DNA from: a virus
Taxonomy: Duplodnaviria; Caudoviricetes
Length of the DNA: 61,385 nucleotides
IMG/VR virus record: IMGVR_UViG_3300040802_000030
Coordinates: 1-61,385 of that record
Strand: one strand, 5' to 3'
Part shown: piece after piece, positions 5,059 through 30,172 of the stretch
Layout of the letters: each line of letters begins with the position of its first letter
Numbering within the stretch: position 1 is the first letter of the stretch
Program-made: the position numbers and the translations under genes
Notes under the pieces: model-generated
What the model saw: only the letters and a program-made list of their open reading frames with translations
Databases searched by the model: none
What the model was told of the DNA's origin: nothing

Positions 5059-5088
5059 GGAGTATCGAAAAAATTACGATAATTTAAT

Positions 5089-5147: not shown

Positions 5148-5171
5148 GAATAATTTCGGAGAAAATATTAA

Positions 5172-5564
5172 ATGGCTACAGTAATTAGAACTGCTATATA
5201 TTCAGACTTAGATATGGAATTAACTAAACAAACAGATGGTGATGTTAAAAGAGATACAGAAATAGAAGCAGTTATTCACTCTCTTGAAAATATTATATCA
5301 ACAACTCAAGGTTCCCGTAGAATGTTACCTGAGTTTGCTATTGATATTCATAATCTATTATTTGAACCACTTGATAAAAGAACCGCCGAAATGATAGGTA
5401 ATAGAATAGTATTGGCAATAGAAACATGGGAAACAAGAGTAGAAATAATAAAATTAAATATTGATGTTAATTATGACCAAAATTTATACAACATGACTTT
5501 GGAATTTATGTTGAAACCCTACGATGAAATAATATCAATAGACTTTGTTTTATTAGCACAATAA
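5172..5564 (+). CDS. gp25: Baseplate wedge protein gp25 (GPW/gp25 family)
   Basis: YSDLD..., SLENIISTTQGSRRMLPEF, LLFEPLD, WETRV. Confidence 0.9.
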   Translation: MATVIRTAIYSDLDMELTKQTDGDVKRDTEIEAVIHSLENIISTTQGSRRMLPEFAIDIHNLLFEPLDKRTAEMIGNRIVLAIETWETRVEIIKLNIDVNYDQNLYNMTLEFMLKPYDEIISIDFVLLAQ

Positions 5565-5565
5565 A

Positions 5566-5573
5566 TATAAATA
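5566..5573 (+). promoter_or_regulatory. T4-type late promoter
   Basis: TATAAATA in the gp25-gp6 intergenic gap. Confidence 0.6.
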
Positions 5574-5611
5574 TAAAAGAAATATAAAATATTACGGGGA
5601 GAAAAATAGTA

Positions 5612-7309: not shown

Positions 7310-7310
7310 T

Positions 7311-10844: not shown

Positions 10845-10855
10845 AGGAAAAATAA

Positions 10856-11641: not shown

Positions 11642-11649
11642 CAATAATT

Positions 11650-14600
11650 ATGTCAAGAAAAAAGTTTTGGGGTTATGTAAAAAATGAATTAGGTAGAGTA
11701 ATACCGGATGCCAATATAAGATTGTATCTCAACGGTACAGATAATTATGCAACTATATACTCAACACCTGTTTCTGCAAGTAGTGATGAGATTGACCAAG
11801 ATACATTTTCAGCAAATTCATCTGGTTATTTTGAATTTTATGTTGGTGATATGTATGAATTTGGTGATAAAATAGGTTATCAACCCGACCAACTTTTTGA
11901 TTTAAGATGGGAATCACCTGATGGTGAAAAATACGGTAATATTGATAATTTACAGATATTTTATCAATTATTTTTATGCGACCCAACAGACGAATTTGAT
12001 ACAGTAAAAAATAAACTTGTAAGTAATGAAGATGCTTATAAATGGTCAACTCATGTTGAGGAAACTTGGTTTCATAGAGTTCATCAACTTGATTCTCTTG
12101 ATATCAATGATTATTCAAGTGCTACATTTAACAAACTTGTAAGTAATAAATTAATGAAAGATTTATATGATTATATACCAACATTTCTAATTAGTGGTGG
12201 TGGTGTAAACTACATTGAAACTATTGGTTCTGGTGGTATGACATTTTTGGTAGATGCTGGATCATGGTCTTCTGAAAGTGGTTATTATGTTTATACAGTT
12301 AATCATAATTATGGTATTCCTAATTTATATCCTCAAATAGAAATATGGAATATTGTTGGAACTGGATATGCATGGGGAAAACCAGAAATTATTTATCCGG
12401 TAAGAATAGACTATGTTGATGATAATAACTTAAAAGTATATGTAACTACTCCACTTGATAGAGCTATTTTTATCGCAGGTGAGAGAATAACAAATGATGA
12501 TTTTGAGGTTGAAGCACCTGAAGTAATGGTATTTAGTCTTCAAACTGTTACACCTAGTGGTGTTGATGGTATTGTACTTGAACTTTGGGAGAGATTATTT
12601 CCTTTAAGTGATAGCGTTGATCAAGTCACAAAAGATTTGAATCCAATGGATTGTAAATCGTTTGCTTATAATAATGAGATATATGTTAAATCTAATAATA
12701 CAAAAGTAAACTTTGATACCTTAGCCGATGCTGGTAAATATATTCATAAGTATAATCCTTCAACATATACTTGGTCAACAGTAACAACTGCTGGACCTGA
12801 AAGATATTTAAGTTCTTTTGAACAAATTAATGGTAAAATATATATTCATGGTGGTTATGAAAGTGGGTTTGTTCCAGAAAATGAAACGTGGTCTTATAAT
12901 ATTTCTGCTGATACATGGACACTTTTGTCAACTGCAGGACCGGCTTATCTATTTTCTTCATATACAAATAATGGTAGTGATAAATTATATATGTACTCTG
13001 GTATAGATAATACTTATACTACTAATGAAGATTTATGGGAATACAATGTCAATACAAATACTTGGACTTTATTGGCATCAACATCACCTTTGACATATAA
13101 TGATACTCTAAGGTCATTATATTATAGTGATACAGATAAAATTTATTATATAAGTTCAAATGAAATGTATACTTTTAATTTATCTGGTAATAATTGGTCA
13201 GCTTCATTACCATTTCCTTTTACCTCCAGTGTTTATTATCATGAAATAACTTCAATAGAGGGTGCAATTTATGTAAATGGTGGTTACAACACAAATACTT
13301 TATGGAATTTTGAAACATATTCTTATGATATTGACTTAAATGTGTGGACACAACTTACAGATTTACCATATGGTTTACAAGGTCATTTTGTAGAAAATGT
13401 TGGTGGTATTATATATTCTGGTGGAGCATCATCACTAAAAAATTATGTATTAGAATATGACCCAGAAGGTGATACATTTGAGATTTCAAATGTAGAAATA
13501 GGTGATAATTATATACCACAAAGAATTTCGTATATTAATTTTGAATATAATGATTTATTATATTTATTAAGTGGTTTACAAACAAGAGACTTGGATGATC
13601 AATGGATTTATAACCCATATACAAATACATCAACTATGTTGGCATCAAGTAGTGATATAAAAAGATTATGGAATCCTTCTATTTCTGTTTTAAATAATAA
13701 AGCTTATGTTTTTGGTGGATATAATACAGATACTTCTTCATATTCATATAAATTATTTTCTTATGATGTATTAACAGAAACTTGGGACGAACTTGCTAAT
13801 TTACCAACATCTGCAGGTAGACGAGCACCAACCTCTGTAATATATAATAACAAATTATATGTACATGGTGGTAGTACAGGATCATCAACATATACAAACG
13901 AAACTTGGTCATATGATATTTCAGGTAATACTTGGACTCTTGTATCAACCGCAGGACCAACTGCTAATTATATGTGTTCTGTATTATATGATGGTAAAAT
14001 GTATGCACATGGTGGTAGAACAACAGGAGGTGGTTATTTAAATAATCTATGGTCATATGATGTTTCGGGTAGTACTTGGACTCTTGTATCAAGCGCAGGA
14101 CCAACCAATGCGGTGTCAAGAATGATATTGAATGGTGATGATATCTTTATTGTTGGTGGTCTTCAAAATAATAGTTTTTGGCAATATGATATATCAGGTG
14201 ATTCATGGATACAATTAAATTCAGTTTTTGATGAAGACCTTGAAGATTTGTCTTATTGGAATATTTCTTCAATATTAAGTAATGGTTCTATATATCTTTA
14301 TGGTGGTCAACTCAATAGTGTATATCTTGATAATATTATTAAAAATAAAATAGAAGAACCTGCAACAATAACAGAAGTTCCTTCGGTTTTTGTAAAAGAT
14401 GATGAGGCATATCCTGTATCACACTTTTTCTCTTTTAATCATGATAATGAAATGTATATCTATGGTGGTAAAGCAGAAGAATATGTAGGAGGTATTGCTT
14501 ATTCATTACGAGATACTGGATATGTTTCAAAATATGATTATATCAATAAAACTTGGTCTATTATATCAACTGATGGACCATCTCGTTTTGATTTTGTTGC

Positions 14601-16128
14601 AGGTTATTATAATGGTAAACTTTATGTTCACGGTGGTAGAGACACAAGCAATAATTATTACTCAGATACTTGGTCATATAATATATCTGCCGATACTTGG
14701 ACACAAGTTGTAACGGGTGGTTTATCAATTAATAGATCGGTATATGCTTCTAATGATGAAAAACTTTATTCATATGGTGGTTTTTTAACAACGACAAGTA
14801 CGCATGCTTTGTATGAATTTGATATGAGTTCAAATACTTGGTCAACAATATTAACCGCTGGAGATGTTACATTTCCTGATTGGATGGTATATCATGATGA
14901 TAATCTTTATGTACATAGTAATTCTTCATCATCTTTCCAATTATATGACATTTCAGGTGATAGTTGGTCAGGAGAATTAACTTATCATAGTGATACAATT
15001 TATTATTCAAAAGCTGTTGTTTATGATGATAAAATTTATATGACAGGTGGTGCCATACTAACAACTACATTGTTTTCTAATTTAATTCTTTCAATATATG
15101 ATATTACAGGTGATAGTTGGAGTTACAGTAGTGAATATTTATTAACAGAATCGGTTAATTCTAATTTAATAGAATATAATGATAAACTTTATACTTATAG
15201 TGGTGGTGATGGTAATTATTTAAGCCCAACATATATGCAGGTTTATGATGTTGCTGGTGATAGTTGGTCATTTGATAATGTTGAAAAAACAAAAGCATTT
15301 TTAAAATTTTCGGGTACCGGAAATATTTGTGAATTAATTAATAATGAGGCCTTTGTTTTTTATAACGATTCATATAATAACATATGGGAAGAAGCTAAAT
15401 TTAATATTGATACAAATACATCAACATTAATAACATCTGCATCAAGTATACCTAGAGGTTTATATAAAGCAACAACAGTGGTGGGTGATAAAATTTATAT
15501 GTTTGGTGGTTCAGATTCATCATATGATGATATATTATATGAATATGATACAACAACATATTCATTGTCGGTGGTAAGTACATATACTGGTCACGGTAAA
15601 TATAGTTCTATAATGGAAACATATGATAATAAATTATATATTCACGGTGGTTTTGATGTTGCAAAATCTCAATATACTTATGATACCATAGAATATGATA
15701 TTACAGGTGATACTTGGACAGTTGTATCGTCAGCCAATGGTGGTAGCACAGGTGCCTTCATGTCATCTACTGTAAGTGGAAGTAATATATATACATATGG
15801 TGGACAAACAAATACTACTGAATTATGGAAATTTGATATAAATACAAGTACTTGGTCATTATTATCATCAACTGGTGGACCTGCTGCATTTTTTGGTCAT
15901 TCAATATACATATATAACAACATATTATATGTATTTGGTGGTGTATCAACAAATAAAAATATTTGGACATACAATTTATCAACAGATACTTGGGCAATGC
16001 TAGATGATGTTTTTGATAAAACATTATTAGTATCTGGTTCTGTTATAAGAAATAATATAGTATTTTTCTTTAATGGTAGATATGGTGTTGTTAATAATGA
16101 TAAAGTATTGAGATATAAAATAACATGA
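11650..16128 (+). CDS. Kelch-repeat multi-propeller virion protein (putative receptor-binding)
   Basis: Many KLYxHGG..W.YD..xxTW Kelch blades after an N-terminal attachment domain. Confidence 0.8.
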   Translation: MSRKKFWGYVKNELGRVIPDANIRLYLNGTDNYATIYSTPVSASSDEIDQDTFSANSSGYFEFYVGDMYEFGDKIGYQPDQLFDLRWESPDGEKYGNIDNLQIFYQLFLCDPTDEFDTVKNKLVSNEDAYKWSTHVEETWFHRVHQLDSLDINDYSSATFNKLVSNKLMKDLYDYIPTFLISGGGVNYIETIGSGGMTFLVDAGSWSSESGYYVYTVNHNYGIPNLYPQIEIWNIVGTGYAWGKPEIIYPVRIDYVDDNNLKVYVTTPLDRAIFIAGERITNDDFEVEAPEVMVFSLQTVTPSGVDGIVLELWERLFPLSDSVDQVTKDLNPMDCKSFAYNNEIYVKSNNTKVNFDTLADAGKYIHKYNPSTYTWSTVTTAGPERYLSSFEQINGKIYIHGGYESGFVPENETWSYNISADTWTLLSTAGPAYLFSSYTNNGSDKLYMYSGIDNTYTTNEDLWEYNVNTNTWTLLASTSPLTYNDTLRSLYYSDTDKIYYISSNEMYTFNLSGNNWSASLPFPFTSSVYYHEITSIEGAIYVNGGYNTNTLWNFETYSYDIDLNVWTQLTDLPYGLQGHFVENVGGIIYSGGASSLKNYVLEYDPEGDTFEISNVEIGDNYIPQRISYINFEYNDLLYLLSGLQTRDLDDQWIYNPYTNTSTMLASSSDIKRLWNPSISVLNNKAYVFGGYNTDTSSYSYKLFSYDVLTETWDELANLPTSAGRRAPTSVIYNNKLYVHGGSTGSSTYTNETWSYDISGNTWTLVSTAGPTANYMCSVLYDGKMYAHGGRTTGGGYLNNLWSYDVSGSTWTLVSSAGPTNAVSRMILNGDDIFIVGGLQNNSFWQYDISGDSWIQLNSVFDEDLEDLSYWNISSILSNGSIYLYGGQLNSVYLDNIIKNKIEEPATITEVPSVFVKDDEAYPVSHFFSFNHDNEMYIYGGKAEEYVGGIAYSLRDTGYVSKYDYINKTWSIISTDGPSRFDFVAGYYNGKLYVHGGRDTSNNYYSDTWSYNISADTWTQVVTGGLSINRSVYASNDEKLYSYGGFLTTTSTHALYEFDMSSNTWSTILTAGDVTFPDWMVYHDDNLYVHSNSSSSFQLYDISGDSWSGELTYHSDTIYYSKAVVYDDKIYMTGGAILTTTLFSNLILSIYDITGDSWSYSSEYLLTESVNSNLIEYNDKLYTYSGGDGNYLSPTYMQVYDVAGDSWSFDNVEKTKAFLKFSGTGNICELINNEAFVFYNDSYNNIWEEAKFNIDTNTSTLITSASSIPRGLYKATTVVGDKIYMFGGSDSSYDDILYEYDTTTYSLSVVSTYTGHGKYSSIMETYDNKLYIHGGFDVAKSQYTYDTIEYDITGDTWTVVSSANGGSTGAFMSSTVSGSNIYTYGGQTNTTELWKFDINTSTWSLLSSTGGPAAFFGHSIYIYNNILYVFGGVSTNKNIWTYNLSTDTWAMLDDVFDKTLLVSGSVIRNNIVFFFNGRYGVVNNDKVLRYKIT

Positions 16129-18176: not shown

Positions 18177-18620
18177 ATGGCTGAATTAGATGAAAAATTA
18201 ATGCATTATAGAAATATAAGAAATATAATGCAAAAATATAAAAGAATTGCTATATATGCTTTACCCGGAGAAGGTAAATCTCATATAATGGCAGAATTAA
18301 AAAAGAAATTTGAACCAGAGTGGAATTTTTATCATTTTGGTCGTGGTATTACAAAAGAACCATACATTATTGAATTACCAGATACTTTTCTCCCAGAGAA
18401 TGTTTTAAATGATTTACCAGTTATTGATATTATTTATTGTCTTCAATATTCAAGAGAATATAAAGAAAGAATAACTGGTATAAGTTTTGGAGATGTTTAT
18501 AGACCTTTTATGGACTATATAAGAGAAATGAAATATGCAAGAGCCGGTAGTCTTAATCTATCGGGTAGAAGATTTAAAAGTATAACAGAATTAGAAAATG
18601 TGATAAGGAGTGTTATGTAA
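18177..18620 (+). CDS. Small P-loop NTPase/kinase-like protein
   Basis: Walker A-like ALPGEGKS. Confidence 0.45.
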   Translation: MAELDEKLMHYRNIRNIMQKYKRIAIYALPGEGKSHIMAELKKKFEPEWNFYHFGRGITKEPYIIELPDTFLPENVLNDLPVIDIIYCLQYSREYKERITGISFGDVYRPFMDYIREMKYARAGSLNLSGRRFKSITELENVIRSVM

Positions 18621-18970
18621 TGAGATTTAAGAAAGCTTTCAAATGTTCAAGATGTCCAGAAAATAATGGTGAAAATGGATGTCCAATGTGGTGGGAAATG
18701 ATTTTAAAAAATAGTGACACAGATGAAACAAAAATTACTAAAGCTTGTGGATTTACACAACTTCCACAAATGCTCGCTTTAATATCAACGGATACAATGC
18801 ACTCAGTTGCAGCATCTTATGATATGAGAAACAAAGTTATAAAAAATGTTGGTAAAGTAATTTTTGCAATTAATGAAAAAATGAATTTGGAATTTAAAGA
18901 AGAAGAAATTGAAGAAATGTCGTCAATCGAAGATAATGATAAAAAAATGATTGAAGATAGGGGAGAGTAA
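18620..18970 (+). CDS. Hypothetical Cys-containing protein, possibly fibre-associated
   Basis: CSRCP..CPMWW..CG; lies between fibre genes. Confidence 0.55.
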   Translation: MRFKKAFKCSRCPENNGENGCPMWWEMILKNSDTDETKITKACGFTQLPQMLALISTDTMHSVAASYDMRNKVIKNVGKVIFAINEKMNLEFKEEEIEEMSSIEDNDKKMIEDRGE

Positions 18971-18974
18971 CTAA

Positions 18975-19658
18975 ATGGAATTTCAAGAAATTGATACAAC
19001 TGGAAAAATATGGGTTCAAAGATTAGCTTCTATACCTACATGGACAACTGCTGATAAAGGTAGAATTATATATAATACAGCAAACGGTTATTACTATTTT
19101 GGTGGTGCTAGTTCGTGGGTTATAATGACAACCGGTGTAAATACAACATATTTAAGTAGAACAACTACAGATTCACACGCCGGAACAATTTATCCAACGG
19201 TAGACGCCGCGGTTAATTTAGGTGGTGGTGTAAACAGATACGCCAATATTTATGCGGTAAATTTTCATGGTATTGCAACATCAGCAAAATACGCTGACGT
19301 TGCTGAAAAATATATTTTAAAGACTGATTATCCAATAGGAACCGTTTTAAAAATCAATAATAATGAAAATTTTGAAATGAGACAGGTTAGTAATATAGAT
19401 GATTTGGTAAGTGGTGTTGTTTCTAAAAATCCTGGTTTTATTCTAAACTCTGAATTAGAAGGTGGTACATCGGTTGCATTAGTTGGTAAAACGCCTGTAA
19501 GAGTTATTGGACCTGTTACAAAGGGTGATATGATCGGACCTTATGATGATGGTTGTGGAATAAAGACAGAAGACAGAACCAATATGTTTGCTATTGCATT
19601 AGAATCATTCTTTGGAGAAGGTGTTGAAGAATTAGTAATGTGTTTGTTAAAATTATAA
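18975..19658 (+). CDS. Tail fibre protein with a C-terminal intramolecular chaperone/autocleavage (peptidase G2-like) domain
   Basis: N-terminus related to the fibre paralogues (DKGRIIY); YADVAEKY...GVVS.NPG..N...VALVGK.PV...GPV.KGD. Confidence 0.7.
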   Translation: MEFQEIDTTGKIWVQRLASIPTWTTADKGRIIYNTANGYYYFGGASSWVIMTTGVNTTYLSRTTTDSHAGTIYPTVDAAVNLGGGVNRYANIYAVNFHGIATSAKYADVAEKYILKTDYPIGTVLKINNNENFEMRQVSNIDDLVSGVVSKNPGFILNSELEGGTSVALVGKTPVRVIGPVTKGDMIGPYDDGCGIKTEDRTNMFAIALESFFGEGVEELVMCLLKL

Positions 19659-19659
19659 G

Positions 19660-19688
19660 TTTACATTATTGACTATTTAACTTATAAT
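19660..19688 (+). promoter_or_regulatory. T4-type early promoter
   Basis: GTTTACA-N17-TATAAT before the first radical SAM gene. Confidence 0.75.
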
Positions 19689-19702
19689 ATAAAATATGTG
19701 AG

Positions 19703-20824
19703 GTGATAAAAATGTCTTTTCAGTTTCAATTAGTTGTAACAGAGAAATGTAATCTAAATTGCTCATATTGTTATATGAAAAAAAATTCAATCAATATGAG
19801 TAATGAAACATTTGATAAACATTATAAAGCATTGCCAATATTAATGAGTAAATATAATCAATCTGATTATGTAACATCATTTTTTGGTGGTGAACCATTA
19901 TTAAATTTTGAATTAATAAAATACGCAGTTAATATATTAAAAAATGACCCAAAATGTAAGGGAATGACAGTTGTTACAAATGGTCTTCCTCTTGGTCCTG
20001 ATAAGAAGAACTTTTTAAATGAAAATGGTGTTAATATATCAATATCATTTGATGGGTTATGGAATGATGTAAATCGTAAACTTATAAATGGTGGAGATTC
20101 TGTAAAATATTACATAAACAATAAAAACTTTTTAAGATTAAAAAGTTGTAAGGTAATGGTAGGTCCGAAAAGAGGAACTGTATCTATGGTTGATAACTAT
20201 AGATGGTTCATGAATGAGTTTGATATATTAAGTCCTGATTATACTTTAGTAAGGGACGATATATGGTCTGATGAAGATGTTGAGTTGTTTTCTAAAGAAT
20301 TAACTGAATTAACTGATGAAAATATTAAAGTTCTATTATCCGGTAAAGAATCTATAATCGGATGGTATGAACTTTATTTTTTGGATACATACATATATAA
20401 AAAGTATGGAAAGAGAAAATTTGGTTGTTTTGCTGGAAATCACGGTTTATCATTTATGCCAGATGGTTTTGTATATCCTTGTGCGAGATTTGGTAGTAAA
20501 AAGGAATATTTAGTATATGACTCAATTTTAAATCATTTTTATGAACCAGATAGATTGGAAATTATAAGTGATAAGATATCCAATCCTCAAGAATATAAAG
20601 AGTGCAAAGAGTGTTCATTATATAACATTTGTAATGCTGGTTGTTTATATTCCCAATTGGATTATAGTAAAAAAGTTGATGGTGAAATAAGATGTAGACC
20701 AATACCAAATGTATGTAAATTATTGAAATTATTATATTCAGAAACATTAAGATTGGTCAATACTGTTGGTGAAACAAAAGCATTTAAAAAAGTTGTTGAA
20801 AAATCTATAAAAAGGATAGGATAA
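19703..20824 (+). CDS. Radical SAM/SPASM-domain enzyme
   Basis: CNLNCSYC, FGGEP, SFDG; SPASM cysteines CFAG..YPC..CKEC..CNAGC..C. Confidence 0.9.
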   Translation: MIKMSFQFQLVVTEKCNLNCSYCYMKKNSINMSNETFDKHYKALPILMSKYNQSDYVTSFFGGEPLLNFELIKYAVNILKNDPKCKGMTVVTNGLPLGPDKKNFLNENGVNISISFDGLWNDVNRKLINGGDSVKYYINNKNFLRLKSCKVMVGPKRGTVSMVDNYRWFMNEFDILSPDYTLVRDDIWSDEDVELFSKELTELTDENIKVLLSGKESIIGWYELYFLDTYIYKKYGKRKFGCFAGNHGLSFMPDGFVYPCARFGSKKEYLVYDSILNHFYEPDRLEIISDKISNPQEYKECKECSLYNICNAGCLYSQLDYSKKVDGEIRCRPIPNVCKLLKLLYSETLRLVNTVGETKAFKKVVEKSIKRIG

Positions 20825-20826
20825 AA

Positions 20827-21207
20827 ATGGATAGAGAAACAAAAGTGTTCTTATGTGTGAAAAGTTTATTTAATATATCAAATGACTTAAAAGATGATTT
20901 TGAGGATTATTCAAATATATTATTATTTATTGCAGATAATATAGCAAGAAAAATGGAAAAAGAAATGGAAAATACAAAACCATCAATTCATAAAGATGGT
21001 AATATACATAATTTAGGTGAGGGTGTGAAATCTCTTAATGAATATATGGATAACACACCAAAAATGGAAAAAGAAAAAAGTTTAGATTTTCCAATTCAAA
21101 CACCAGAAGAAAGAATGATTGAAGAACAAGTTGATAATACTATAAAAGAAGTAAGAAAAGAATTAAGTAATTCAATAAAAGAAGAAACGAGTAATGTCGG
21201 ATGCTGA
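20827..21207 (+). CDS. Hypothetical protein
   Basis: Tightly packed ORF between two radical SAM genes. Confidence 0.6.
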   Translation: MDRETKVFLCVKSLFNISNDLKDDFEDYSNILLFIADNIARKMEKEMENTKPSIHKDGNIHNLGEGVKSLNEYMDNTPKMEKEKSLDFPIQTPEERMIEEQVDNTIKEVRKELSNSIKEETSNVGC

Positions 21208-22379
21208 AAAGAAAAGTAAGATATTTTCATATTGATTTGAATACAACAAGATCATGTAATATGGCTTGTAAATATTGTTTCGAACCAAAAGAATTAATAC
21301 CTATAGGTAATAAACTTGACTTTGATTTTACTAAATCTTTTGTATATTGGGTAATGGATTTTGTTAAATCATCATTTTTTATTGATAATTATGATATTTT
21401 AAGTATTGATTTTTGGGGTGGTGAACCAACATTATGTTCATATGAAATTAAATCAATTATTGATTACTTCGAGAATTATGAGAATATAAAATTTTATATT
21501 TACAGCAATGGATATGATATATCAGATATTAAAGAGACTTTAATAAAATATAGAAATAAAGTGGTATTAGATAACTCACCTAAATTATTATTACAAGTTT
21601 CATATGATGGTGAAAAATTACAAGATAAGTATAGAGTCAATAAAAAAGGTGAGGGTACAAGCAAAAGAGTAAAATCAAATATAGAGTGGTTAAATGATAA
21701 AGAAATACCATTTGTAATAAAATCGGTTATTTCACCAGTTGATTTTGACTTAATGATTGATTCGTATGATGAAATAAAAGAGTTAATTTATAACAATAAT
21801 GTAAATACTGGTTATTTTCCTACAATTGAATATTATAATTCTGAAAGATTTACGGAAGAAGAAATACAGGACCATTTGAGTAAATTAAGATATTCAATGA
21901 CTATAATAACAGCAAAAGAAATAATAAGTATTTTGGATAAAAATGAGAGATTATTTTTTACTTGGTTAAAGGGTAATATAGCATTATGTAATGCCGGTCA
22001 AAACTATATATCAATTGATTATGATGGAAATATATATTCCTGTCATGGTTGTTTTTATTCAAATAAAAAAGATCATTATTTTACTAATATGTTAAGTAAT
22101 AGTAATTCAATAGATTGGATTAAAATAATTTGTAATAAAAATAAACTAAATAATAACTATATACCTCCTAAATGTGAAGAATGTGACACATTAATTTGTC
22201 TAAGATGTAATGTTGTAAAATATGAAAACAGTAAAAAAGAAAATTATTTTGATAAATGGAGAGACTATTCAAATCAACCAACATTATGTAGATATTATAG
22301 AGAGGCAAGCAAATTTATAAAAATTTTTAGAAATAAATTGGGGAGAGATAAATTAAATGGCGTGTACAGGTCATGTTAA
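21201..22379 (+). CDS. Radical SAM/SPASM-domain enzyme
   Basis: CNMACKYC, WGGEP, SYDG; CNAG..YSCH..CEEC...CLRC..C. Confidence 0.9.
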   Translation: MLKRKVRYFHIDLNTTRSCNMACKYCFEPKELIPIGNKLDFDFTKSFVYWVMDFVKSSFFIDNYDILSIDFWGGEPTLCSYEIKSIIDYFENYENIKFYIYSNGYDISDIKETLIKYRNKVVLDNSPKLLLQVSYDGEKLQDKYRVNKKGEGTSKRVKSNIEWLNDKEIPFVIKSVISPVDFDLMIDSYDEIKELIYNNNVNTGYFPTIEYYNSERFTEEEIQDHLSKLRYSMTIITAKEIISILDKNERLFFTWLKGNIALCNAGQNYISIDYDGNIYSCHGCFYSNKKDHYFTNMLSNSNSIDWIKIICNKNKLNNNYIPPKCEECDTLICLRCNVVKYENSKKENYFDKWRDYSNQPTLCRYYREASKFIKIFRNKLGRDKLNGVYRSC

Positions 22380-22848
22380 TAGTTGTTTAACACATCCGGG
22401 ATATATAGGACCACGAACAGCAACAGTTTGGACTGATCCAACATTAAATACTAGTATAACAATAAAAGCAACTCATTTTAATCAATTAAGAACAGCAATC
22501 ATAAATGAATTAGCAGTTAGAGGTTTGGGAACTAGTGGTATGTATGGTGCGCAAAGTTCTGGTACTATTATATATTCAGTTTTATATAAAGGTTTAAGAA
22601 GTAATATGGAAAGAATTGATGCGGCTCAATGGGCCGCCTATAGTGCTGTAGAAAAAGCAAAAATGAATGATACAGCTCTAGCAATTGGTTCATTAATAGA
22701 AGATACAACAACTGCTGCATTTAGAACATACACAAACTATATGGAAAGTTTATGTGTGTGTAATTGTAATTACGCCTGTACTTGTGATTGTAATTATTGT
22801 ACTTGTAATTGTGCAAATGAATGTAGTTGTCAAACATATTATTATTAA
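22357..22848 (+). CDS. Protein with an 11-Cys C-terminal tail; candidate radical SAM substrate and virion protein
   Basis: C-terminus CVCNCNYACTCDCNYCTCNCANECSCQTYYY; strong GGGGAG Shine-Dalgarno. Confidence 0.7.
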   Translation: MACTGHVNSCLTHPGYIGPRTATVWTDPTLNTSITIKATHFNQLRTAIINELAVRGLGTSGMYGAQSSGTIIYSVLYKGLRSNMERIDAAQWAAYSAVEKAKMNDTALAIGSLIEDTTTAAFRTYTNYMESLCVCNCNYACTCDCNYCTCNCANECSCQTYYY

Positions 22849-22860
22849 AAGGAGAAAGAT

Positions 22861-23466
22861 GTGGGTAAATTAGCAAAAAGTTACTTTATCATTTTCGATA
22901 AAGGTGATATGTGGCAAGTAACAGGAACAGTAAATATTCCAGAAGGTTATGAAGTATCGGAAAACCATGATGGTGTTCTTGATATGTCTGATTTTAATGT
23001 TAGAGAGGTTTTTCTTTACGCTAAGGAAAAAATAGAAAATAATAATGTTTATATTCCAAAAAACTATCAAGGTAGATTAGTAAAAGATGATCTTATTATA
23101 GTGCCTCATGATAAATTGGAAGTAAAAAGAGCTAGAACTATAAGTAAAGGTAAAGAAATTTTGATGCAAAAGGTTTCTTTATTTGAGATATTTGCTTCAG
23201 TTGAATTTATTATACTAAATAATTATTTATTAGAAAAGGGTTATGTTATTACTGATAGTAATAGACAAGATAAATACCTTGAAATAATAGAAACAGGTGA
23301 TATAGAGTTAATAGAAAAATTAGAAAGATTTCTAAAATGTCGTGATGATATAATGATAAATTATACATTTCATTCAATATTTCGTGAATTTAGATTAAAT
23401 CTTGAAAAAGCAGAGAGTGAAGAAGAAATAGATAAAATTTGGAAAGAATTTGTTATAATATTTTAA
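22861..23466 (+). CDS. Hypothetical protein
   Basis: AAGGAG Shine-Dalgarno, GTG start, predicted helical. Confidence 0.65.
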   Translation: MGKLAKSYFIIFDKGDMWQVTGTVNIPEGYEVSENHDGVLDMSDFNVREVFLYAKEKIENNNVYIPKNYQGRLVKDDLIIVPHDKLEVKRARTISKGKEILMQKVSLFEIFASVEFIILNNYLLEKGYVITDSNRQDKYLEIIETGDIELIEKLERFLKCRDDIMINYTFHSIFREFRLNLEKAESEEEIDKIWKEFVIIF

Positions 23467-23467
23467 T

Positions 23468-24310
23468 ATGTTAAGAAAAAAATACTTGTTTATACCAAAA
23501 AAATTTGGTAAATTGAAAAGGGGTGCTTGGATGGCCTCTTTAGATTTGAAGGAAACTTTTGATGAGTTTATCGACATAAGAGAAAGTAGAAGTATAAGAA
23601 GAATTTCAGATGTAGTTAATGATTATGAAAAATTAATATTCATTACACAAGTACCTCATTTATATCACTTAAATATAAGTTTTATTGCGTTAAGAAATAT
23701 CAATCATTTGATTTATCTAAGGGGGGAGTATGTATCTCCCCTTTATAATTCTTGTAATAATGGATTTCATTATTACAGAGAACATAATCAAATAAAACAT
23801 TATATTCCATTCATACCTAACCTACCAAAATATGAAAATAAGAATTATAGAGTTGGTTTCTATTATAGACCCTGGCTAAATCCAGATTCTTGTAAATGGT
23901 TTATAGATAATTATGTAGATAATGACATACCTATAATGACTATGGGTAGTGTACCCATAAGATTACTTCAAAGAAAGAATTGGAAACATACATTCGATAG
24001 AAATGAATTTTTTAGTAACATAACAGATTATATTTACGTCAAATCAAAAAAATTTAATGACCCATTTCCTACTTCTTTATGTGAAGCTGTTCAAACGGGT
24101 AAGAATATTAAAATAATTGATATAGGATATAGACCTTTTAAAGATGGTATTAATGATATTGAAGATTGTATTAATTATGATGATAGTTTATTAAACTTTT
24201 CTAATTGGATAAAGTGGTATGGGAATATTTTGAATAATGGATTCAATAATGTAATGGATAGGAATAAATATAATAATTTTTCTAATTGGATATTAAATGA
24301 AGTAATTTAA
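23468..24310 (+). CDS. GT-B-like glycosyltransferase paralogue
   Basis: YIY...DPFPTSLCEAVQTGK, a D/E-x7-E nucleotide-sugar motif. Confidence 0.5.
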   Translation: MLRKKYLFIPKKFGKLKRGAWMASLDLKETFDEFIDIRESRSIRRISDVVNDYEKLIFITQVPHLYHLNISFIALRNINHLIYLRGEYVSPLYNSCNNGFHYYREHNQIKHYIPFIPNLPKYENKNYRVGFYYRPWLNPDSCKWFIDNYVDNDIPIMTMGSVPIRLLQRKNWKHTFDRNEFFSNITDYIYVKSKKFNDPFPTSLCEAVQTGKNIKIIDIGYRPFKDGINDIEDCINYDDSLLNFSNWIKWYGNILNNGFNNVMDRNKYNNFSNWILNEVI

Positions 24311-24352
24311 TATCTCTCCCCTATATCTCTCTTTCTCCCCAACAACTAGTTT

Positions 24353-24380
24353 ATTATAACACATTTTGGGAGAATGTAAA
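24353..24380 (-). promoter_or_regulatory. Early-type promoter in antisense orientation
   Basis: GTTTACA-N16-TATAAT on the minus strand between two plus-strand genes. Confidence 0.55.
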
Positions 24381-24388
24381 CATAAAAA

Positions 24389-25273
24389 ATGAAAAAAATT
24401 TTTATTTTATCAGACCATAGATATTTGAGTGGGTCACTAATAAATCTACTGGATTTTCAACAATATTTAAAAGATATTGAAAAATACAACGTAACATTTA
24501 TATGTGAAGATAAGCTCATAAATCATAATCTAATTAAACTAACTAATAGAAAATACACATTCGATAGACTTGATAAAATAAAAGATGTGATTATAATAAA
24601 AGGTTGTTTGATAACAGATTTTAAATCCCTATGTTCAACTTACCTTAATAATAAAAGAATATTAGCAGATAAATGTATTGTGGTTGATAACATTGAATTA
24701 ACATTTTATTTGAATAAAAGAAGTGACACACATTTATATTATGATATTGACCTATATAATTGTTTAAATTATCATAAAGTGAAAAATTTCATATTTTTAA
24801 TGCCAAAATTTAATAAAGATATTTGGGATAATATATATAGTGATGTAAAATCAGAAGTCTTTTATAAGAAGATAAATTTAAATTTATTGAATCATATGAA
24901 TATTAGTAATAACGGTAAACTATTTTTCAGGTCACATAATTTTTATCTTGATGATGATATGGTAAATTTTACTAACATATCAACAATAATAAAGAATAAA
25001 TATTCCAATTCAGTTGAGTTGAATCTGTTAAATTATAAAGATATATTCAATTATAAAGGTTATATTTACTGTAAAAAACCAGAGACATATTATTTTGAAC
25101 AATTTGGTAGACTGATATTTGAGTATATATTGTTAGGAAAAGAGATACATTGGTTTGATAATCCTTATGAATATGATGATGGTTTAAAAGAATATTTAAA
25201 TTACTATAGTGAGGATAAAAATCAAATTGAATATCTTATGAATAAAAAATATGAAGAAAAGCCATGGGAGTAA
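24389..25273 (+). CDS. GT-B-like glycosyltransferase paralogue
   Basis: SGSLINL N-terminal motif; YIY...EQFGRLIFEYILLGK. Confidence 0.5.
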   Translation: MKKIFILSDHRYLSGSLINLLDFQQYLKDIEKYNVTFICEDKLINHNLIKLTNRKYTFDRLDKIKDVIIIKGCLITDFKSLCSTYLNNKRILADKCIVVDNIELTFYLNKRSDTHLYYDIDLYNCLNYHKVKNFIFLMPKFNKDIWDNIYSDVKSEVFYKKINLNLLNHMNISNNGKLFFRSHNFYLDDDMVNFTNISTIIKNKYSNSVELNLLNYKDIFNYKGYIYCKKPETYYFEQFGRLIFEYILLGKEIHWFDNPYEYDDGLKEYLNYYSEDKNQIEYLMNKKYEEKPWE

Positions 25274-25726: not shown

Positions 25727-26155
25727 ATGGCAAAACCTTATTATGTAAAAAATTCAGAACTCTTACCTCATATTCATGTATATAGAGAGACAGGAGTTGT
25801 ATCAGAAGAACTTGGTGGATTTATCTATAAGATAGCATACAATTATGCAAATAAAGGAAGTTTTTACGGTTATACTTGGAAAGAAGATATGGTATCAGAA
25901 GCAGTATTGACTTGTATTAAGTATATGCATAATTTTGACCCAATGGCCCAGAAAAGACCAAATCCATTCGCATATTTCACAACAGTTATTCATAATGCCT
26001 TTTTGAACTATATAAGAAAGCAGAAAAAACATAGTAAAATTAAAGACATATGTTGGAAAAATTGTTATCTACTAGATAAAGAAGAAATATATCATACAAA
26101 AGCTATTGACTATAGAGTAATGAAAAGGACAGATGATGCGGACGAGTCGTGTTAA
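25727..26155 (+). CDS. gp55: Late transcription sigma factor, T4 gp55-like
   Basis: YVxN, F.GY.WKEDM.SEA...C.KY.HNFDP..NPFAYFT...NAF..I.K.KK. Confidence 0.9.
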   Translation: MAKPYYVKNSELLPHIHVYRETGVVSEELGGFIYKIAYNYANKGSFYGYTWKEDMVSEAVLTCIKYMHNFDPMAQKRPNPFAYFTTVIHNAFLNYIRKQKKHSKIKDICWKNCYLLDKEEIYHTKAIDYRVMKRTDDADESC

Positions 26156-26942
26156 TGTTTTATATTTAACTACCAAATGTAATATGTCATGTGACTATTG
26201 TTATGAAAAAGCGAGTAGAGACAATCTACCAGAACAAATTGATGTATCAAAAGAAGATATTAATAAATTTTTAAAAGAAATATCAGAAAGAGAGAAAAAT
26301 CAAATATCCACCATCGTCTTAATGGGAGGTGAGGTATTTCTCAAACCTAATTTATTAAAATATGTATTTGATAAAATGAGTAATATGAATCATAAGTGGG
26401 GATCATCAATTACTACAAATGCAACATTATTTAATAATGGTGAGTTAATAAACGACTTATATTTTAATAAGAGTAAAAATGTAAGTTTAACTATTGAAAT
26501 AAGTTATGATTGTAGCGGTCATGATAGAAGAACATTTAGAAATGGTCGTTTCACAAAAAAAGTAGTTGAAAATTCACTTGATTTACTTGTAAAAAGTAAC
26601 ATACCCTTTAAAATTAGTTATACACTACATAAAGATAACTATAATAATTTTGTACATGATATGATTTACATATGTGAACGATGGGGTAGTCATCTTTTAA
26701 ATATAAAAGTATCACCATTTTTTAGTGAATTAAATGAATATTTTGGTGAAAATTCATTGGAGAAAATTGGTATTCTGGCCAATGCTATAGGAAAAAGATA
26801 TAAGATATATATTTGTGATTTCAATTGTAGTGTGTGTAAAAAATGTGATAGGTCAAATTTTATTGGTAATTCTTATTTATCACCTAATAAGAGTATAATA
26901 TATGAAGAAAGTGAAACACAAAAATTATTTGATAAGTGGTAA
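26133..26942 (+). CDS. Radical SAM enzyme
   Basis: CNMSCDYC, MGGE, TTN, ISYD; C-terminal CxxxCxxCxxC. Confidence 0.85.
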   Translation: MMRTSRVNVLYLTTKCNMSCDYCYEKASRDNLPEQIDVSKEDINKFLKEISEREKNQISTIVLMGGEVFLKPNLLKYVFDKMSNMNHKWGSSITTNATLFNNGELINDLYFNKSKNVSLTIEISYDCSGHDRRTFRNGRFTKKVVENSLDLLVKSNIPFKISYTLHKDNYNNFVHDMIYICERWGSHLLNIKVSPFFSELNEYFGENSLEKIGILANAIGKRYKIYICDFNCSVCKKCDRSNFIGNSYLSPNKSIIYEESETQKLFDKW

Positions 26943-28015
26943 AAATGATAAAAGTAGAAACAAAATCAAAGGTTATTGGACGTCCACAATATTCTAAAAA
27001 CATAGTAAAATCAAAACCACAATTAGTTGCTTTTGGTGATATTGATATGTTTAATAGTGGTAATGTGAAATTATTATGGACACCCACAGAGGTTTGTAAT
27101 TTTAATTGTTCTTATTGTGGTTATAAAAGAATAAAAAATCCACACCATTCAACAAATGGTGATATAAAAAGATCAATTAAATTTATGGAAAGAATACAAG
27201 ATGTAAAAATCATAAAGAAATTATTTATCATTGCTGCTGAACCAACATTGGTAAAAAATTTAGACTTGATAATAGGTACTATAAAACCTTTATTGATAAA
27301 TTGTGATATTATAACATTATATTCTAATATGAGCGCAAGTATAGACTTGTATAGAAAAATAATGGATTTGTTTATTGATGGTAGTATGATGTTTTCATTG
27401 TTTCCATCATTTCATAAAAAAGACATAGATGTAGATGTTTTTATGGGTAAATTATGGACTCTCAAAGAAGAATATAGTAATTACAGTAACATATCTCTTG
27501 ACAGTATTAGTTTTATGGTTGAAGATGAAACTTATCATGAAAGAGCAAAAGAGGTTTATGAGAAATATCCCGGTCTTAGATTTCACCTATTTCCTATAAG
27601 AGAAAAGGGTGATATAATTAAGATAGAACAACAATTTTATCAAGAACCATATAAAACAAAGAATAATATAGTAAAAATTTATAAAGATGGTAGTGAATAT
27701 TTCTATACTAAATTTTTGAATAATGAATTACCATTAGTACCTGAATTTAAAAATTTTATATGTCAATCATGGGATAATTTGTTATATCTTGATGCAAAAG
27801 GATATTTAAGATATTGTACTTTAACAAATCCTCAATGGGATATGAATATAAAAGACTTAGAAGAAACTATTCAAAAATTGAGAAATAAAAAAAGACAAGT
27901 TTGTAATGTATCTCAATGTTTTTGTGATTGGGATGTTCCAAAATATAAGATATCTGAATACAATAAGATAAAGTCATGGACAAAAAAAGACATATTACAA
28001 CTGAAAATGTTGTAA
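26936..28015 (+). CDS. Radical SAM enzyme (Twitch/SPASM-like C-terminus)
   Basis: CNFNCSYC, AAEP in place of GGEP; C...C...CNVSQCFC. Confidence 0.8.
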   Translation: MVKMIKVETKSKVIGRPQYSKNIVKSKPQLVAFGDIDMFNSGNVKLLWTPTEVCNFNCSYCGYKRIKNPHHSTNGDIKRSIKFMERIQDVKIIKKLFIIAAEPTLVKNLDLIIGTIKPLLINCDIITLYSNMSASIDLYRKIMDLFIDGSMMFSLFPSFHKKDIDVDVFMGKLWTLKEEYSNYSNISLDSISFMVEDETYHERAKEVYEKYPGLRFHLFPIREKGDIIKIEQQFYQEPYKTKNNIVKIYKDGSEYFYTKFLNNELPLVPEFKNFICQSWDNLLYLDAKGYLRYCTLTNPQWDMNIKDLEETIQKLRNKKRQVCNVSQCFCDWDVPKYKISEYNKIKSWTKKDILQLKML

Positions 28016-28800
28016 TATTTTACAATTGGTTTAATGGTATAAATGGTGCGTTGATAGATGCTTTTGAATATTATATATCAATATTAGAAAAAGTACCTGT
28101 TAAATTTCTATTGATAAATCGTATAGATAGAAAACTTGATAATATATTACACATGTTTGAAAATAGATATGATTTAGATGATCTGAAATGGAAAGAAAAT
28201 ATAATAACAACAACACTTCCTAAACTCATTCATCTTAATTTTAAGAACTCTTTAGTTGTTGACTACTCAACCATCAACAAGACAAAGGGTCTTTTAAGGT
28301 CAGAAAAGATAATTGTAATATCTGACTTTCATACAGATAAAAAAGAGTTTATGTATGATAAAGAAAAACAGAATGTTATATACTATGGTGAAATGCCATT
28401 TGTTTATAATGATGTTCCATATAGAATGAAATTTTTATTTGATAGATTCAAAGAGTTGAGATATGTGAAAGATAGAATATATATCAATAGTCCATTCAAT
28501 AAAGATATTAGTTTTGTAAATAAATTGAATCTGGATAAAGAAGTTATATTTAAGTCAACATCACATTTAGATAATTTATTTGAACAGTTTAATACCTATA
28601 TATACTATCACGCAAATAAATGGTTTGACCCACATCCAAGACTGTTTCACGAATGTTATTTTTATGGTAAGAACATTCAATATATCAATGATTACGGTGT
28701 GTTAGATGGTGGTTATTATAGATATGTTGATTTGAAAAAAACGGGTTTAAATAATAGATATTTGAATGAAAATGATGAAATAGTGAAAGAGTTTCTATGA
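27976..28800 (+). CDS. GT-B-like glycosyltransferase paralogue
   Basis: NGALIDAFEY; YIY...DPHPRLFHECYFYGK. Confidence 0.5.
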   Translation: MDKKRHITTENVVIFYNWFNGINGALIDAFEYYISILEKVPVKFLLINRIDRKLDNILHMFENRYDLDDLKWKENIITTTLPKLIHLNFKNSLVVDYSTINKTKGLLRSEKIIVISDFHTDKKEFMYDKEKQNVIYYGEMPFVYNDVPYRMKFLFDRFKELRYVKDRIYINSPFNKDISFVNKLNLDKEVIFKSTSHLDNLFEQFNTYIYYHANKWFDPHPRLFHECYFYGKNIQYINDYGVLDGGYYRYVDLKKTGLNNRYLNENDEIVKEFL

Positions 28801-29357
28801 AAAAAATATTAATGATACATGATGTTAATGAAGATATACTAAAACTACCGCTGGACCAATACATCTTAACTTTTGATGATGGTTTATATAGTCAATTTTA
28901 TTATTGGCCTCTTATAAGGGAGATTAATACAGAGAAAATCTTTTTTATAACTTGTTCATATGTATCTGATTATAGTATGGAAAGACCTGTTTTTAATGGT
29001 AAATATTATAGATTTATGGATTGTATCAATGCTAGACAAGATTTTGAAAAGTCTGGTGATAGGTCACAATATATGTCTTTATGTGAGATATATAAGATAT
29101 ACTCAGAGGGTGGAATCATAGGTGGTCATAGTTATTTTCATAAGAAATATGAAAAGGGTATCATATTGGATTTATTAGAATTTAAGTATGATACCGAAAG
29201 AATGATAAAATGGTTTGATGAGTTATTAAAGATAAAACCCACTCATTATTGCTTCCCATTTAATAAAGAGAAATTATTAATGAGAGAAATATTAAGAAGA
29301 TATGGTTTCACCAATTTCTATGGCAATGAAAGAGTACCAGTGGAGGCTCTATTATGA
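28797..29357 (+). CDS. Polysaccharide deacetylase (NodB/CE4 family)
   Basis: LTFDDG, GHSYFH, FPF motifs. Confidence 0.8.
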   Translation: MKKILMIHDVNEDILKLPLDQYILTFDDGLYSQFYYWPLIREINTEKIFFITCSYVSDYSMERPVFNGKYYRFMDCINARQDFEKSGDRSQYMSLCEIYKIYSEGGIIGGHSYFHKKYEKGIILDLLEFKYDTERMIKWFDELLKIKPTHYCFPFNKEKLLMREILRRYGFTNFYGNERVPVEALL

Positions 29358-30172
29358 ATTATCTAACATTATTTTTAACTGAACAATGCAATAGAAAATG
29401 TGAATATTGTGACATAAGTAAAATTGAAAACAAGAAAAAACCTAATAAACCTACCGTCAGAAAATTCATACCACTAATAAAAAAATCTTCTTGGTCAAAT
29501 ATAGTATTAACGGGTGGGGAGGTTTCTTTAATTGACCCATTACTATTAGATTTCATAATGACTGAGTTAAAAGATAAGATACTCAAAATCAACACAAATG
29601 GTTTGTGGTTTAAATTTGGTCATTTCAAAAAATATTATGAAATAACCGACTACATTCAATATCATCCCATATCTGAAATAAATGAACATTTTGAACCTAT
29701 AATTGATAAAAAAATAACTTATTACTTTCCAATACACAAGAAGAATATTGATTATCTTGATGATTTTTTGAATAGAAATAGAAATTTAGTAATAAGATTA
29801 GCACCTTATGATATGAAATATTTGAATAATAAGTATTTGTTAAGTGTTGGTGATTTTACTGAAATAAGTAGAATCATAGGAAAATATGGTAACATAACAA
29901 CCGATACAAAGAAAATGTTTGATTTTCTTTCAAGAAATAATGATTTAACTTTGTTAAAGAAAATGTGTTTCTATCCATCAATAGATTTTGTTAATTGTAG
30001 GATTAACAAATGTATAAAAAGTCATTCACTATCTACTTGGATACCACTAACTGAAGAAAATTTTAACAATATGGAACAGTTAAAATATATTAAAGATAGT
30101 ATGTGTGATTATTGTCATATGTTTGTAAGAGATTTTGAAACAATAATAAGGAAATTAGTATGTTCGGATTAG
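29354..30172 (+). CDS. Radical SAM enzyme
   Basis: CNRKCEYC, LTGGE, NTNG; C-terminal cysteines. Confidence 0.85.
   Translation: MNYLTLFLTEQCNRKCEYCDISKIENKKKPNKPTVRKFIPLIKKSSWSNIVLTGGEVSLIDPLLLDFIMTELKDKILKINTNGLWFKFGHFKKYYEITDYIQYHPISEINEHFEPIIDKKITYYFPIHKKNIDYLDDFLNRNRNLVIRLAPYDMKYLNNKYLLSVGDFTEISRIIGKYGNITTDTKKMFDFLSRNNDLTLLKKMCFYPSIDFVNCRINKCIKSHSLSTWIPLTEENFNNMEQLKYIKDSMCDYCHMFVRDFETIIRKLVCSD

Follow-up and report, generated by a model that had tools for sequence, protein, structure and literature searches.

Radical SAM/SPASM enzymes beside a cysteine-ladder protein in the fibre genes of large tailed phages: a candidate case of thioether stapling in a virion

Why would a tailed phage keep two radical S-adenosylmethionine (SAM) enzymes of the SPASM type directly in front of a gene whose product ends in a ladder of cysteines? 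The question is raised by the block 19703..23466 of a 61,385-bp IMG/VR virus record (IMGVR_UViG_3300040802_000030; this whole stretch is called the window), which is estimated to be 26% complete, has a G+C content of about 27% and gives a weak DNA match to a tail-fibre gene of Campylobacter phage CP220. The block is best read as a late-operon cassette of a large T4-like phage, kin of the Campylobacter Eucampyvirinae. An original prediction, made without database searches, proposed that the two enzymes cross-link the cysteine-rich end of a virion protein in the manner of peptides made on the ribosome and modified after translation (RiPPs). The reading favored here, to which we assign a probability of roughly 55%, is that the Cys ladder belongs to a fibre protein of the virion and receives thioether cross-links from PapB/CteB-like enzymes without a RiPP recognition element (RRE).

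The tail of the 163-aa repeat protein (Table 1) is exactly as first described, with 11 Cys in the last 31 residues (nucleotides 22753..22845), and the gene does overlap the end of the second SPASM gene, by 23 nt; a strong Shine-Dalgarno sequence, GGGGAGAG, lies about 9 nt upstream of its start. Cys makes up 1.4% of residues in window open reading frames (ORFs) of at least 100 aa, and the repeat gene is the sole credible ORF in the window with at least 6 Cys in 30 residues; two other Cys-dense ORFs (68-75 aa) were judged spurious. The ladder consists of three to four degenerate copies of the heptad C-T-C-[N/D/Q]-C-N-[Y/H/F], and Tandem Repeats Finder detects only a weak 6-bp periodicity in this short array. 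The N-terminal part, which holds WTDPTL...IKATHFNQLRTAI (WTDPxL...H(F/H)NELRxAI in the family), had been likened to phage structural proteins rather than to a short leader peptide. It is predicted to be a folded domain and not a short leader: the AlphaFold2 (AF2) model has a confidence score (pLDDT) of about 90 over residues 20-135, which form five helices, and below 50 in the tail. The likeness to structural proteins was not borne out by any known fold of that kind, with no Foldseek match at E <=0.001 in PDB or BFVD and a best VIA-align Z of 7.6, to a designed helical filament, in a range common for helical models. Structure neighbours in the Atlas (template modelling score, TM, 0.54-0.66) provide a lead that a similar domain may occur at the ends of phage Ig/fn3 proteins.

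No Pfam or NCBIfam family matches the repeat protein, including the models of Cys-repeat targets (TIGR04114/04117, the SCIFF model TIGR03973 and Cys-every-fifth). Its sole curated match is PHROG 26958 (2.7e-6), a family of the size of CP220 gp140 (534 positions); tblastn with the 163-aa protein against the phage collection found no match, and the route from this protein to CP220 runs only through the repeat pattern and PHROG 26958. A first search identified 38 metagenomic homologues, all 38 of which contain the tail motif and share the plan of start, helical domain and array. When 1.84 billion cluster representatives were searched with a profile, 523 matched at E <=0.001, 71 of them at E <=1e-30; the family is thus widespread in uncultured large phages. 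In some relatives (among P0020, P0024, P0028, P0031, P0027, P0029, P0032 and P0036) the N-terminal C-x2-H motif is multiplied, up to about seven copies, and others in that set begin with CSCH/CTCH...GGSNW repeats; this region could be a second modified or metal-binding region.

The repeat follows a grammar that resembles that of an enzyme substrate. Across 1422 heptad units in 240 distinct proteins, each Cys is present in at least 99.5% of units, position 2 is T in 74%, position 4 is N, D or Q in 95% (N 55%, D 33%, Q 6.5%) and position 7 is Y in 91%, H in 6% and F in 3%. The search anchor of that count required N at position 6; in another count, of 532 units, this position is N in 91%. Arrays contain 2 to 28 units per protein, which follow each other directly or with one spacer residue, usually Ala or Ser. 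Each heptad contains two nested C-x-x-[N/D/Q] motifs; where two units meet, N-Y-(A)-C forms an N-x-(x)-C motif as well, so that a link could run in either direction. In the available text on the archaeal CrpA/B proteins, C-X-X-Q/D is read as a thioether motif and ranthionine links are shown on protein (PMC13692751).

By sequence, both neighbouring genes encode radical SAM/SPASM proteins, as first described. They pass the PF04055 cut-off of 29.5 bits (enzyme A 47.8, enzyme B 35.5 bits) and carry the cluster motif close to the start, CNLNCSYC from residue 16 in enzyme A and CNMACKYC from residue 19 in enzyme B. Against the TIGR04085 SPASM model, with a cut-off of 27 bits, enzyme A passes (39.5; 43.7 in a second scan) and enzyme B falls just under (22.1; 26.6 in a second scan). 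The seven C-terminal Cys, a motif for two auxiliary 4Fe-4S clusters, are complete in both, which places them in the SPASM subgroup: together with the cluster Cys they are kept in 15/15 orthologues of enzyme A (Cys 16, 20, 23, 242, 260, 301, 304, 310, 314 and 338) and in 16/16 orthologues of enzyme B (C19, C23, C26, C263, C281, C325, C328, C333, C336 and C363). A SPASM match at E <1e-6 is found in only these two of the nine PF04055 genes in the window.

Only 15-18 residues precede the CX3CX2C motif in the two enzymes, so neither has an N-terminal domain of RRE size, and their matches to RRE-bearing maturase models in NCBIfam begin at about profile position 100. The PapB family of ranthipeptide maturases, NF047865, is the best NCBIfam match for enzyme A (5.7e-43, 147.4 bits) and enzyme B (2.4e-21, 76.3 bits), both under its cut-off of 340, and likewise for 8/8 accompanying radical SAM proteins of relatives tested (54-77 bits). 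For enzyme A the PapB model is ahead of the second-best, a nif11-type maturase, by 57 bits. The next matches (nif11, SCIFF, QhpD and CcpM for enzyme A; DynA and the anaerobic sulfatase-maturating enzyme, anSME, for enzyme B) are mostly further radical SAM maturases that modify peptides or proteins. Among solved chains, 5wgg comes closest (enzyme A 1.3e-17, enzyme B 6.7e-7), with a match that starts at chain residue 99-101; we take this chain to be the SCIFF maturase CteB.

The enzymes and the repeat protein travel together. The comparison covered 34 repeat-protein loci, in 25 distinct groups once near-identical ones are collapsed: 26 loci from IMG/VR, 6 from a degenerate DNA pattern scan of species genomes, whose contigs carry the same set of phage genes, and 2 reached via longer relatives. 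A seventh pattern-scan locus, L033, was dropped as an out-of-frame chance match. A radical SAM gene is present within the locus in 21 of the 25 groups, and in 12 a B-type enzyme lies directly upstream (gap <=22 nt or overlap), as in the window; enzyme B is the most constant neighbour of the repeat protein. Usually enzyme A comes first, next the 126-aa gene, a third and shorter radical SAM gene or both, and then enzyme B, with the repeat gene after it and the 201-aa gene last. The linkage is kept despite other gene orders in L017-L019, CP220 and L030; in L030 the distance to the SPASM genes, which are downstream, is 3.2 kb. In L037, a Gly_rich_2 protein ends in the same repeat; B-like, A-like and third radical SAM genes precede its gene, and that of the 201-aa partner comes after it. 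The two SPASM enzymes and the Cys-tailed protein thus form a conserved unit, and homologues without SPASM neighbours are not routine: one lineage, L038, shows none within 8 kb on either side or in its 43.8-kb fragment.

Four of the 25 groups (L015/16, L021/22, L035 and L038) contain no enzyme gene. The contigs of the first two stop 0-1.6 kb past the repeat gene. Gene order in L016 (4/4 compared genes) and L015 (its remaining genes) agrees with that of L030, which would put the enzymes past the contig break. Two contigs of jumbo-phage size, about 200 kb, carry a tandem pair of repeat-protein genes after the enzymes (L003:7413-8561 and L005:7893-9037).

The third radical SAM genes, which in many relatives replace or accompany the 126-aa gene, encode proteins of 270-410 aa with PapB as best match and without a full SPASM match. 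The 126-aa protein itself has no Pfam, NCBIfam or PHROG match, and homologues at the same position (phmmer, E 1e-21 to 2e-4) occur in L001/2, L004, L005, L010 and L029, that is, 5 of the 25 groups. The 201-aa protein downstream has homologues just after the repeat gene in 12 groups (phmmer). Its AF2 model has a pLDDT of 86; Foldseek found no match, and VIA-align gave Z values of 8-9 on three-helix bundles for the C-terminal part only, the N-terminal part being barely sampled. It is a possible helper, chaperone or docking partner. Both proteins had been proposed as accessory factors, a suggestion in keeping with this linkage.

Cultured phages contain the same three components. CP220 gp140, of 534 aa, contains six perfect 21-bp repeats encoding CTCDCNY, with further C-x-C-[N/D]-x-[N/D] motifs downstream. 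Timms et al. (2010) reported this as the sole intragenic repeat in CP220 and counted 11 radical SAM genes, and the available text of that paper makes no link between the two (PMC2853527). Two of the 11 genes in this 99% complete genome are of SPASM type, and these are the orthologues of enzymes A and B: gp136 (enzyme B) lies 2.2 kb downstream of gp140, and gp023 (enzyme A; 35% identity, 8e-72) about 31 kb from it. Among 50,697 phage records, a gp140-like gene, an enzyme A orthologue (E <=1e-59) and an enzyme B orthologue (E <=1e-30) are each found in 15 records, which represent the same 11 Firehammervirus phages; other genera in the collection contain no gp140 match and no orthologue-level match to either enzyme. 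These 11 phages are more than 92% identical in gp140 and thus amount to about one independent observation. Their gp140-type proteins are 534-832 aa long.

Public annotations of these homologues are misleading. The gp140 homologue is a 'putative N-acetylneuraminate pyruvate lyase' in CP21 (HE815464.1 74991..76592) and WX1, and CP20 (MK408758.1) labels the homologues of enzymes B and A 'transcriptional regulatory protein' and 'arylsulfatase regulator'. The main text of the IBB_35 paper does not mention a gp140-type gene, of which that phage has one by our own count (gene 3-9).

The sequence context of the repeat points to fibres. In 19 family proteins the array is followed by a longer C-terminus, SDxRLKxNI... 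and about 60 more residues, and in 6/6 such relatives tested a Peptidase_S74 (PF13884) match begins at profile position 1 right after the last unit, above the 22-bit cut-off in five. A further 70 of the 240 family proteins retain an S74 stub only (the first ~12 residues; <=20). The window protein has no S74 part in Pfam and ends ...CSCQTYYY, 3 residues past its last unit, as one of 66 of the 240 that stop within 12 residues. In P0067 the array is followed by a Hint-like domain (Hint_2 5.7e-6, under the cut-off), seen in P0044, P0048, P0050 and P0053 by motif only (CFLAGTPV...); a Hint/intein-like continuation is also seen by motif in P0062, P0075, P0080 and P0083. The Hint-like domain would thus occupy the junction that S74 occupies in other relatives, as a self-processing domain of another kind. 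In L038 the gene next to the repeat gene carries an S74 domain, in L037 the repeat is fused to a Gly-rich domain, and in L015, L021 and L030 a collagen-repeat fibre gene lies directly upstream. Taken together, these sequence features mark the Cys repeat as belonging to fibre-type proteins. The collagen-repeat proteins (L015:1907-7930, L021:3244-7851 and L030:867-2876) are 669-2007 aa long, with PF01391 matches down to 2e-105, and those of L030 and L016 share a C-terminal module with the window gene 18975..19658.

S74 domains fold the adjoining upstream trimeric stalk, as in endosialidases and tail fibres, and then cleave themselves off. Given the position of S74 in relatives, the ladder most likely makes up the distal part of a fibre that is a trimer. 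Stalks folded by S74 typically consist of short repeats in which alternate residues point inward, and the Cys array of relatives ends where the S74 profile begins, whereas the window protein lacks S74. No S74 fibre with a Cys ladder or dedicated radical SAM enzymes was found in the literature.

Under the thioether reading, the cassette would make a small fibre-type virion protein and modify it post-translationally. The enzymes would recognise the repeat protein by its folded N-domain or by the conserved MACTGH..C..H start, and 5'-deoxyadenosyl radical chemistry would bond the sulfurs of Cys to carbons, in side chains or the backbone, of residues close by. The likeliest acceptors would be the near-invariant Asn, Asp or Gln found three positions downstream of both the first and the second Cys in a heptad. 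The resulting run of small thioether rings may form a rigid rod resistant to proteases and redox changes. Since the ladder precedes S74 in relatives, it would probably, by analogy, lie exposed at the distal end of a trimeric fibre or whisker. The wider proposition, that tailed phages turn an expandable C-T-C-[N/D]-C-N-Y ladder at a trimeric fibre tip into a stapled rod by means of dedicated RRE-less SPASM enzymes, and so apply RiPP-type chemistry to their own particles, is offered tentatively, at a little under even odds.

The closest experimental precedent, in the available text of Dieter et al. (2026), is the CrpA/CrpC system of Methanococcus voltae (PMC13692751). In that system a SPASM enzyme acts on a protein of full size, whose N-terminal domain is folded and whose C-terminal part is an array of Cys-rich repeats with C-X-X-Q/D; a mass loss of 2 Da for each thiol lost showed the ranthionine links, and domain-domain recognition was proposed (PMC13692751). 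CrpC has an N-terminal RRE (residues 1-92), whereas the CX3CX2C motif of the phage enzymes starts at residues 16-19, and the Crp repeat unit is 17 residues long, against 7-8 in the phage ladder (PMC13692751). The Crp system is archaeal and cellular, the phage system viral and fibre-linked, and the word 'phage' is absent from the text available (PMC13692751). Of 8 related enzymes scanned, 4 match the CrpC-type model TIGR04463, weakly (33-46 bits against a cut-off of 525), and the model is outside the 25 best models listed for enzymes A and B.

PapA (freyrasin), the substrate of PapB, likewise has tandem short Cys repeats; each of them becomes a small ring with an acceptor C-terminal to Cys, according to the available text (PMC12373016). 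The same text describes a carboxylate acceptor and a leader docked on the RRE (PMC12373016), whereas the phage repeat offers largely Asn and its enzymes have no RRE-sized domain. The phage enzymes are not members of the PapB family, with 54-147 bits against the NF047865 cut-off of 340, and the presumed phage substrate is a fibre-type protein of 150-800 aa, unlike the leader-bearing PapA peptide.

By sequence, CteB (5wgg, 5why; TIGR03974), a thioether-forming SPASM enzyme on a Cys-rich peptide, is the nearest solved structure for both enzymes. Its model scores 86.8 bits on enzyme A and 41 on enzyme B (cut-off 425), with matches from profile position 101; the N-terminal part of CteB that the phage enzymes lack is presumably its RRE. 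SCIFF is a peptide of about 45 aa, unlike the phage substrate. The SPASM enzyme QhpD forms its Cys-to-Asp/Glu cross-links inside a protein subunit and not in a released peptide. Its model, TIGR03906, gives 79 bits on enzyme A, far under the cut-off of 453, and its target QhpC is a subunit of a redox enzyme, whereas the phage target would be a repeat array in a fibre-type protein. The literature searches found no paper tying phage radical SAM/SPASM genes to a Cys-repeat virion protein, and motif strings such as CTCNCNY gave no relevant match. The chemistry class and the protein-substrate precedent are known; what is new is the repeat grammar, the RRE-less enzymes and the presumed viral fibre target.

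Several points weigh against thioether stapling. Enzymes A and B lie under the membership cut-off of every curated family model tested, and at 147 and 76 bits against the PapB cut-off of 340 their chemistry cannot be read from family membership. Heptad position 6 is Asn, as is half of position 4, and the idea of an Asn acceptor is borrowed from NxxcB. Each heptad contains three Cys against two obvious acceptors, while the window has two enzymes, and C-x-C-x-C also fits a metal-thiolate site. PapB cross-linking is so far limited to acidic acceptors, and test peptides with C-terminal Asn or Gln were not processed by PapB, in the available text of that study (PMC12373016). A co-fold of enzyme B with the repeat protein (three 4Fe-4S clusters and SAM included; no controls) scored 0.02, a value that counts neither for nor against the reading.

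The linkage itself has weak spots. The distance of about 31 kb between gp140 and the enzyme A orthologue in CP220 means that adjacency is not obligatory. L035 has no radical SAM gene in its 8-kb locus, of which only 2 kb lie downstream. In L038, the gene of a 17-unit protein has large structural genes around it; the 8 kb on either side contain no radical SAM gene, and the 43.8-kb fragment (23% complete) contains no SPASM match; L038 is the one real exception to the linkage so far. The linked loci may all come from one broad phage lineage, so that synteny may be partly inherited rather than selected, and these phages carry many radical SAM genes. Finally, the gel bands of CP220 listed in the available text do not include the gp140 gene (PMC2853527).

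The rival that survives best makes the Cys ladder the metal-binding core of a trimeric fibre, with SPASM enzymes that act elsewhere or merely share its ancestry; we regard it as unlikely. The T4 fibre proteins gp37 and gp12 have His-x-His metal sites, and an alternating C-x-C-x-C would suit a beta-strand with all Cys on one face. The repeat occurs at the site where S74 chaperones fold trimeric stalks, three HxHxH-rich fibre-like paralogues are encoded just upstream in the same phage, and both L038 and L035, without a radical SAM gene nearby, and the general abundance of such genes in these phages would be expected. Metal binding leaves unexplained, however, why SPASM-type enzymes alone accompany the repeat across gene orders and protein architectures, why the repeat gene is translationally coupled to enzyme B, and why Asn at position 6 is near-invariant and position 4 is N, D or Q, none of which are ligands of thiolate sites.

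It is also conceivable, with a probability that we put lower still, that the repeat protein is the substrate of the enzymes and that the chemistry is something other than Cys thioether formation: formylglycine from Cys (anSME type), C-C or C-O cross-links from Tyr (cyclophane/DynA type) or epimerisation. An anSME model matches enzyme B and its CP220 orthologue over nearly the full length (52.5 and 60 bits), and the models of DynA and of the cyclophane-forming YhhB, GrrM and XyeB match too, with scores that all lie far under the family cut-offs, so that no chemistry can be assigned from them. The Tyr, His or Phe at heptad position 7 is as conserved as Cys. On the other hand, the thioether-forming PapB is the top match for 10/10 enzymes, by a clear margin for enzyme A, the anSME target motif (C/S-x-P/A-x-R) is absent from the tail, and an unreactive Cys would hardly account for the three that are invariant in every unit. 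A role of the repeat protein as Fe-S scaffold or sulfur donor for the many radical SAM enzymes was considered and set aside, as it misfits the S74, Gly-rich and gp140-type fusions.

A true RiPP, in which the 130-aa N-terminal part is a large leader (as in the nitrile-hydratase-like and Nif11-like leaders) and the Cys-rich core is released as a bacteriocin-like or signalling peptide that aids phage or host, would account for the layout of recognition part and core beside maturases and for the nif11-type model as second-best match of enzyme A, but is very improbable: no protease or exporter/transporter family was found in the tested genes of 18177..25273 (Pfam, NCBIfam, PHROG), arrays reach 28 units, the repeat is fused to or followed by S74 or Gly_rich_2 or stands in the 534-832-aa gp140 type among relatives of 150-850 aa, its gene lies inside baseplate and fibre gene blocks, and the N-domain is a confidently folded bundle of about 115 residues in AF2. 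The toxic tip that the original prediction had entertained finds no support, as the tested genes of the module include no protease or exporter family.

SPASM thioether chemistry is known from small secreted peptides and, on protein, only since 2026 and from one archaeal case. If the thioether reading is true, this chemistry would acquire a clear structural purpose and virions a new post-translational modification, the first enzymatic cross-link of such type in any virion: a fibre segment stabilised by enzyme-made thioether rings rather than by folding or metal ions. Variation from 2 to 28 units could tune the length or stiffness of the fibre and hence host recognition. The reading would also help to explain a puzzle left by the 2010 description of CP220, as far as its available text goes, namely the combination of many radical SAM genes with a 21-bp intragenic repeat (PMC2853527). 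Phages of the CP220 group are cultured, which makes the idea directly testable, and RRE-less enzymes that work on a seven-residue grammar may interest those who develop biocatalysts for peptide stapling.

Table 1. Features of the cassette and its flanks, in window coordinates
Feature	Position	Strand	Remarks
Three tandem paralogues, 175-180 aa	16545..18165		HxHxH-rich, e.g. HTHTFDG
Fibre-type protein, 227 aa, directly upstream of the cassette	18975..19658	+	PHROG 19602 'tail fiber protein', 2.4e-19
Enzyme A, radical SAM/SPASM, 373 aa	19703..20824	+	PF04055 2.3e-12
Acidic protein between the enzymes, 126 aa	20827..21207	+	Position shared with relatives
Enzyme B, radical SAM/SPASM, 392 aa	21201..22379	+	PF04055 1.4e-8
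Cys-tailed repeat protein, 163 aa	22357..22848	+	Ends CVCNCNYACTCDCNYCTCNCANECSCQTYYY
N-terminal part of repeat protein	22357..22752	+	MACTGHxNxCxxHPGY start (C-x2-H twice), helical bundle
Cys ladder and stop codon	22753..22848	+	CVCNCNY-ACTCDCNY-CTCNCAN-ECSCQTYYY; presumed substrate region
Downstream partner, 201 aa	22861..23466	+	Small beta N-terminal part and helical bundle; PHROG 25260, 5.8e-9
Two further genes after the cassette, 280 and 294 aa	23468..25273	+	Cassette membership uncertain

The cassette had been placed just after the tail-fibre genes, and its surroundings agree in part. The stretch 4117..16128 encodes proteins of the baseplate hub and wedge as well as two large 'virion structural' proteins, and the 227-aa protein has its PHROG fibre match, whereas the three tandem paralogues, separated from the 227-aa gene by two small genes, match no family in a PHROG search. 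They share an N-terminal module with the fibre-like 227-aa protein and are kept upstream of the cassette in L001, L010 and L029. The C-terminal part of the 227-aa protein resembles, in sequence, an autoproteolytic chaperone domain of tail fibres; its Peptidase_G2 IMC match is weak (0.0024, under the Pfam cut-off). Homologues lie directly upstream of enzyme A in L001-L006, L010, L020, L029 and L032, and in relatives the same module forms the C-terminus of larger fibre proteins, some with collagen repeats, such as the 669-aa homologue in L030.

Neither of the two genes that follow the cassette has a Pfam match. Homologues (phmmer) of the 280-aa gene lie after the cassette in L001-L003 and L009, and those of the 294-aa gene in L002, L006, L010 and L032. 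Structure neighbours of the predicted models in the Atlas (TM 0.6-0.67) offer a lead only, that the 280-aa protein, and perhaps the 294-aa protein too, may be like glycosyltransferases of the GT-B fold; the target of such a protein could be the fibre protein or DNA.

Scans of the window for promoters and terminators did not exceed chance, with 84 sites where 86 are expected, and the T4-type late motif TATAAATA occurs 15 times against 27.8 expected. Farther downstream, seven more radical SAM genes stand in a row at 26133..35101; they encode proteins of 269-433 aa, all with CX3CX2C and none with a SPASM signature. This second island is reminiscent of the radical SAM clusters described for CP220 in the available text (PMC2853527). 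At its near end, the 142-aa product of 25727..26155 has, by eye only, the look of a T4 gp55-type late sigma factor.

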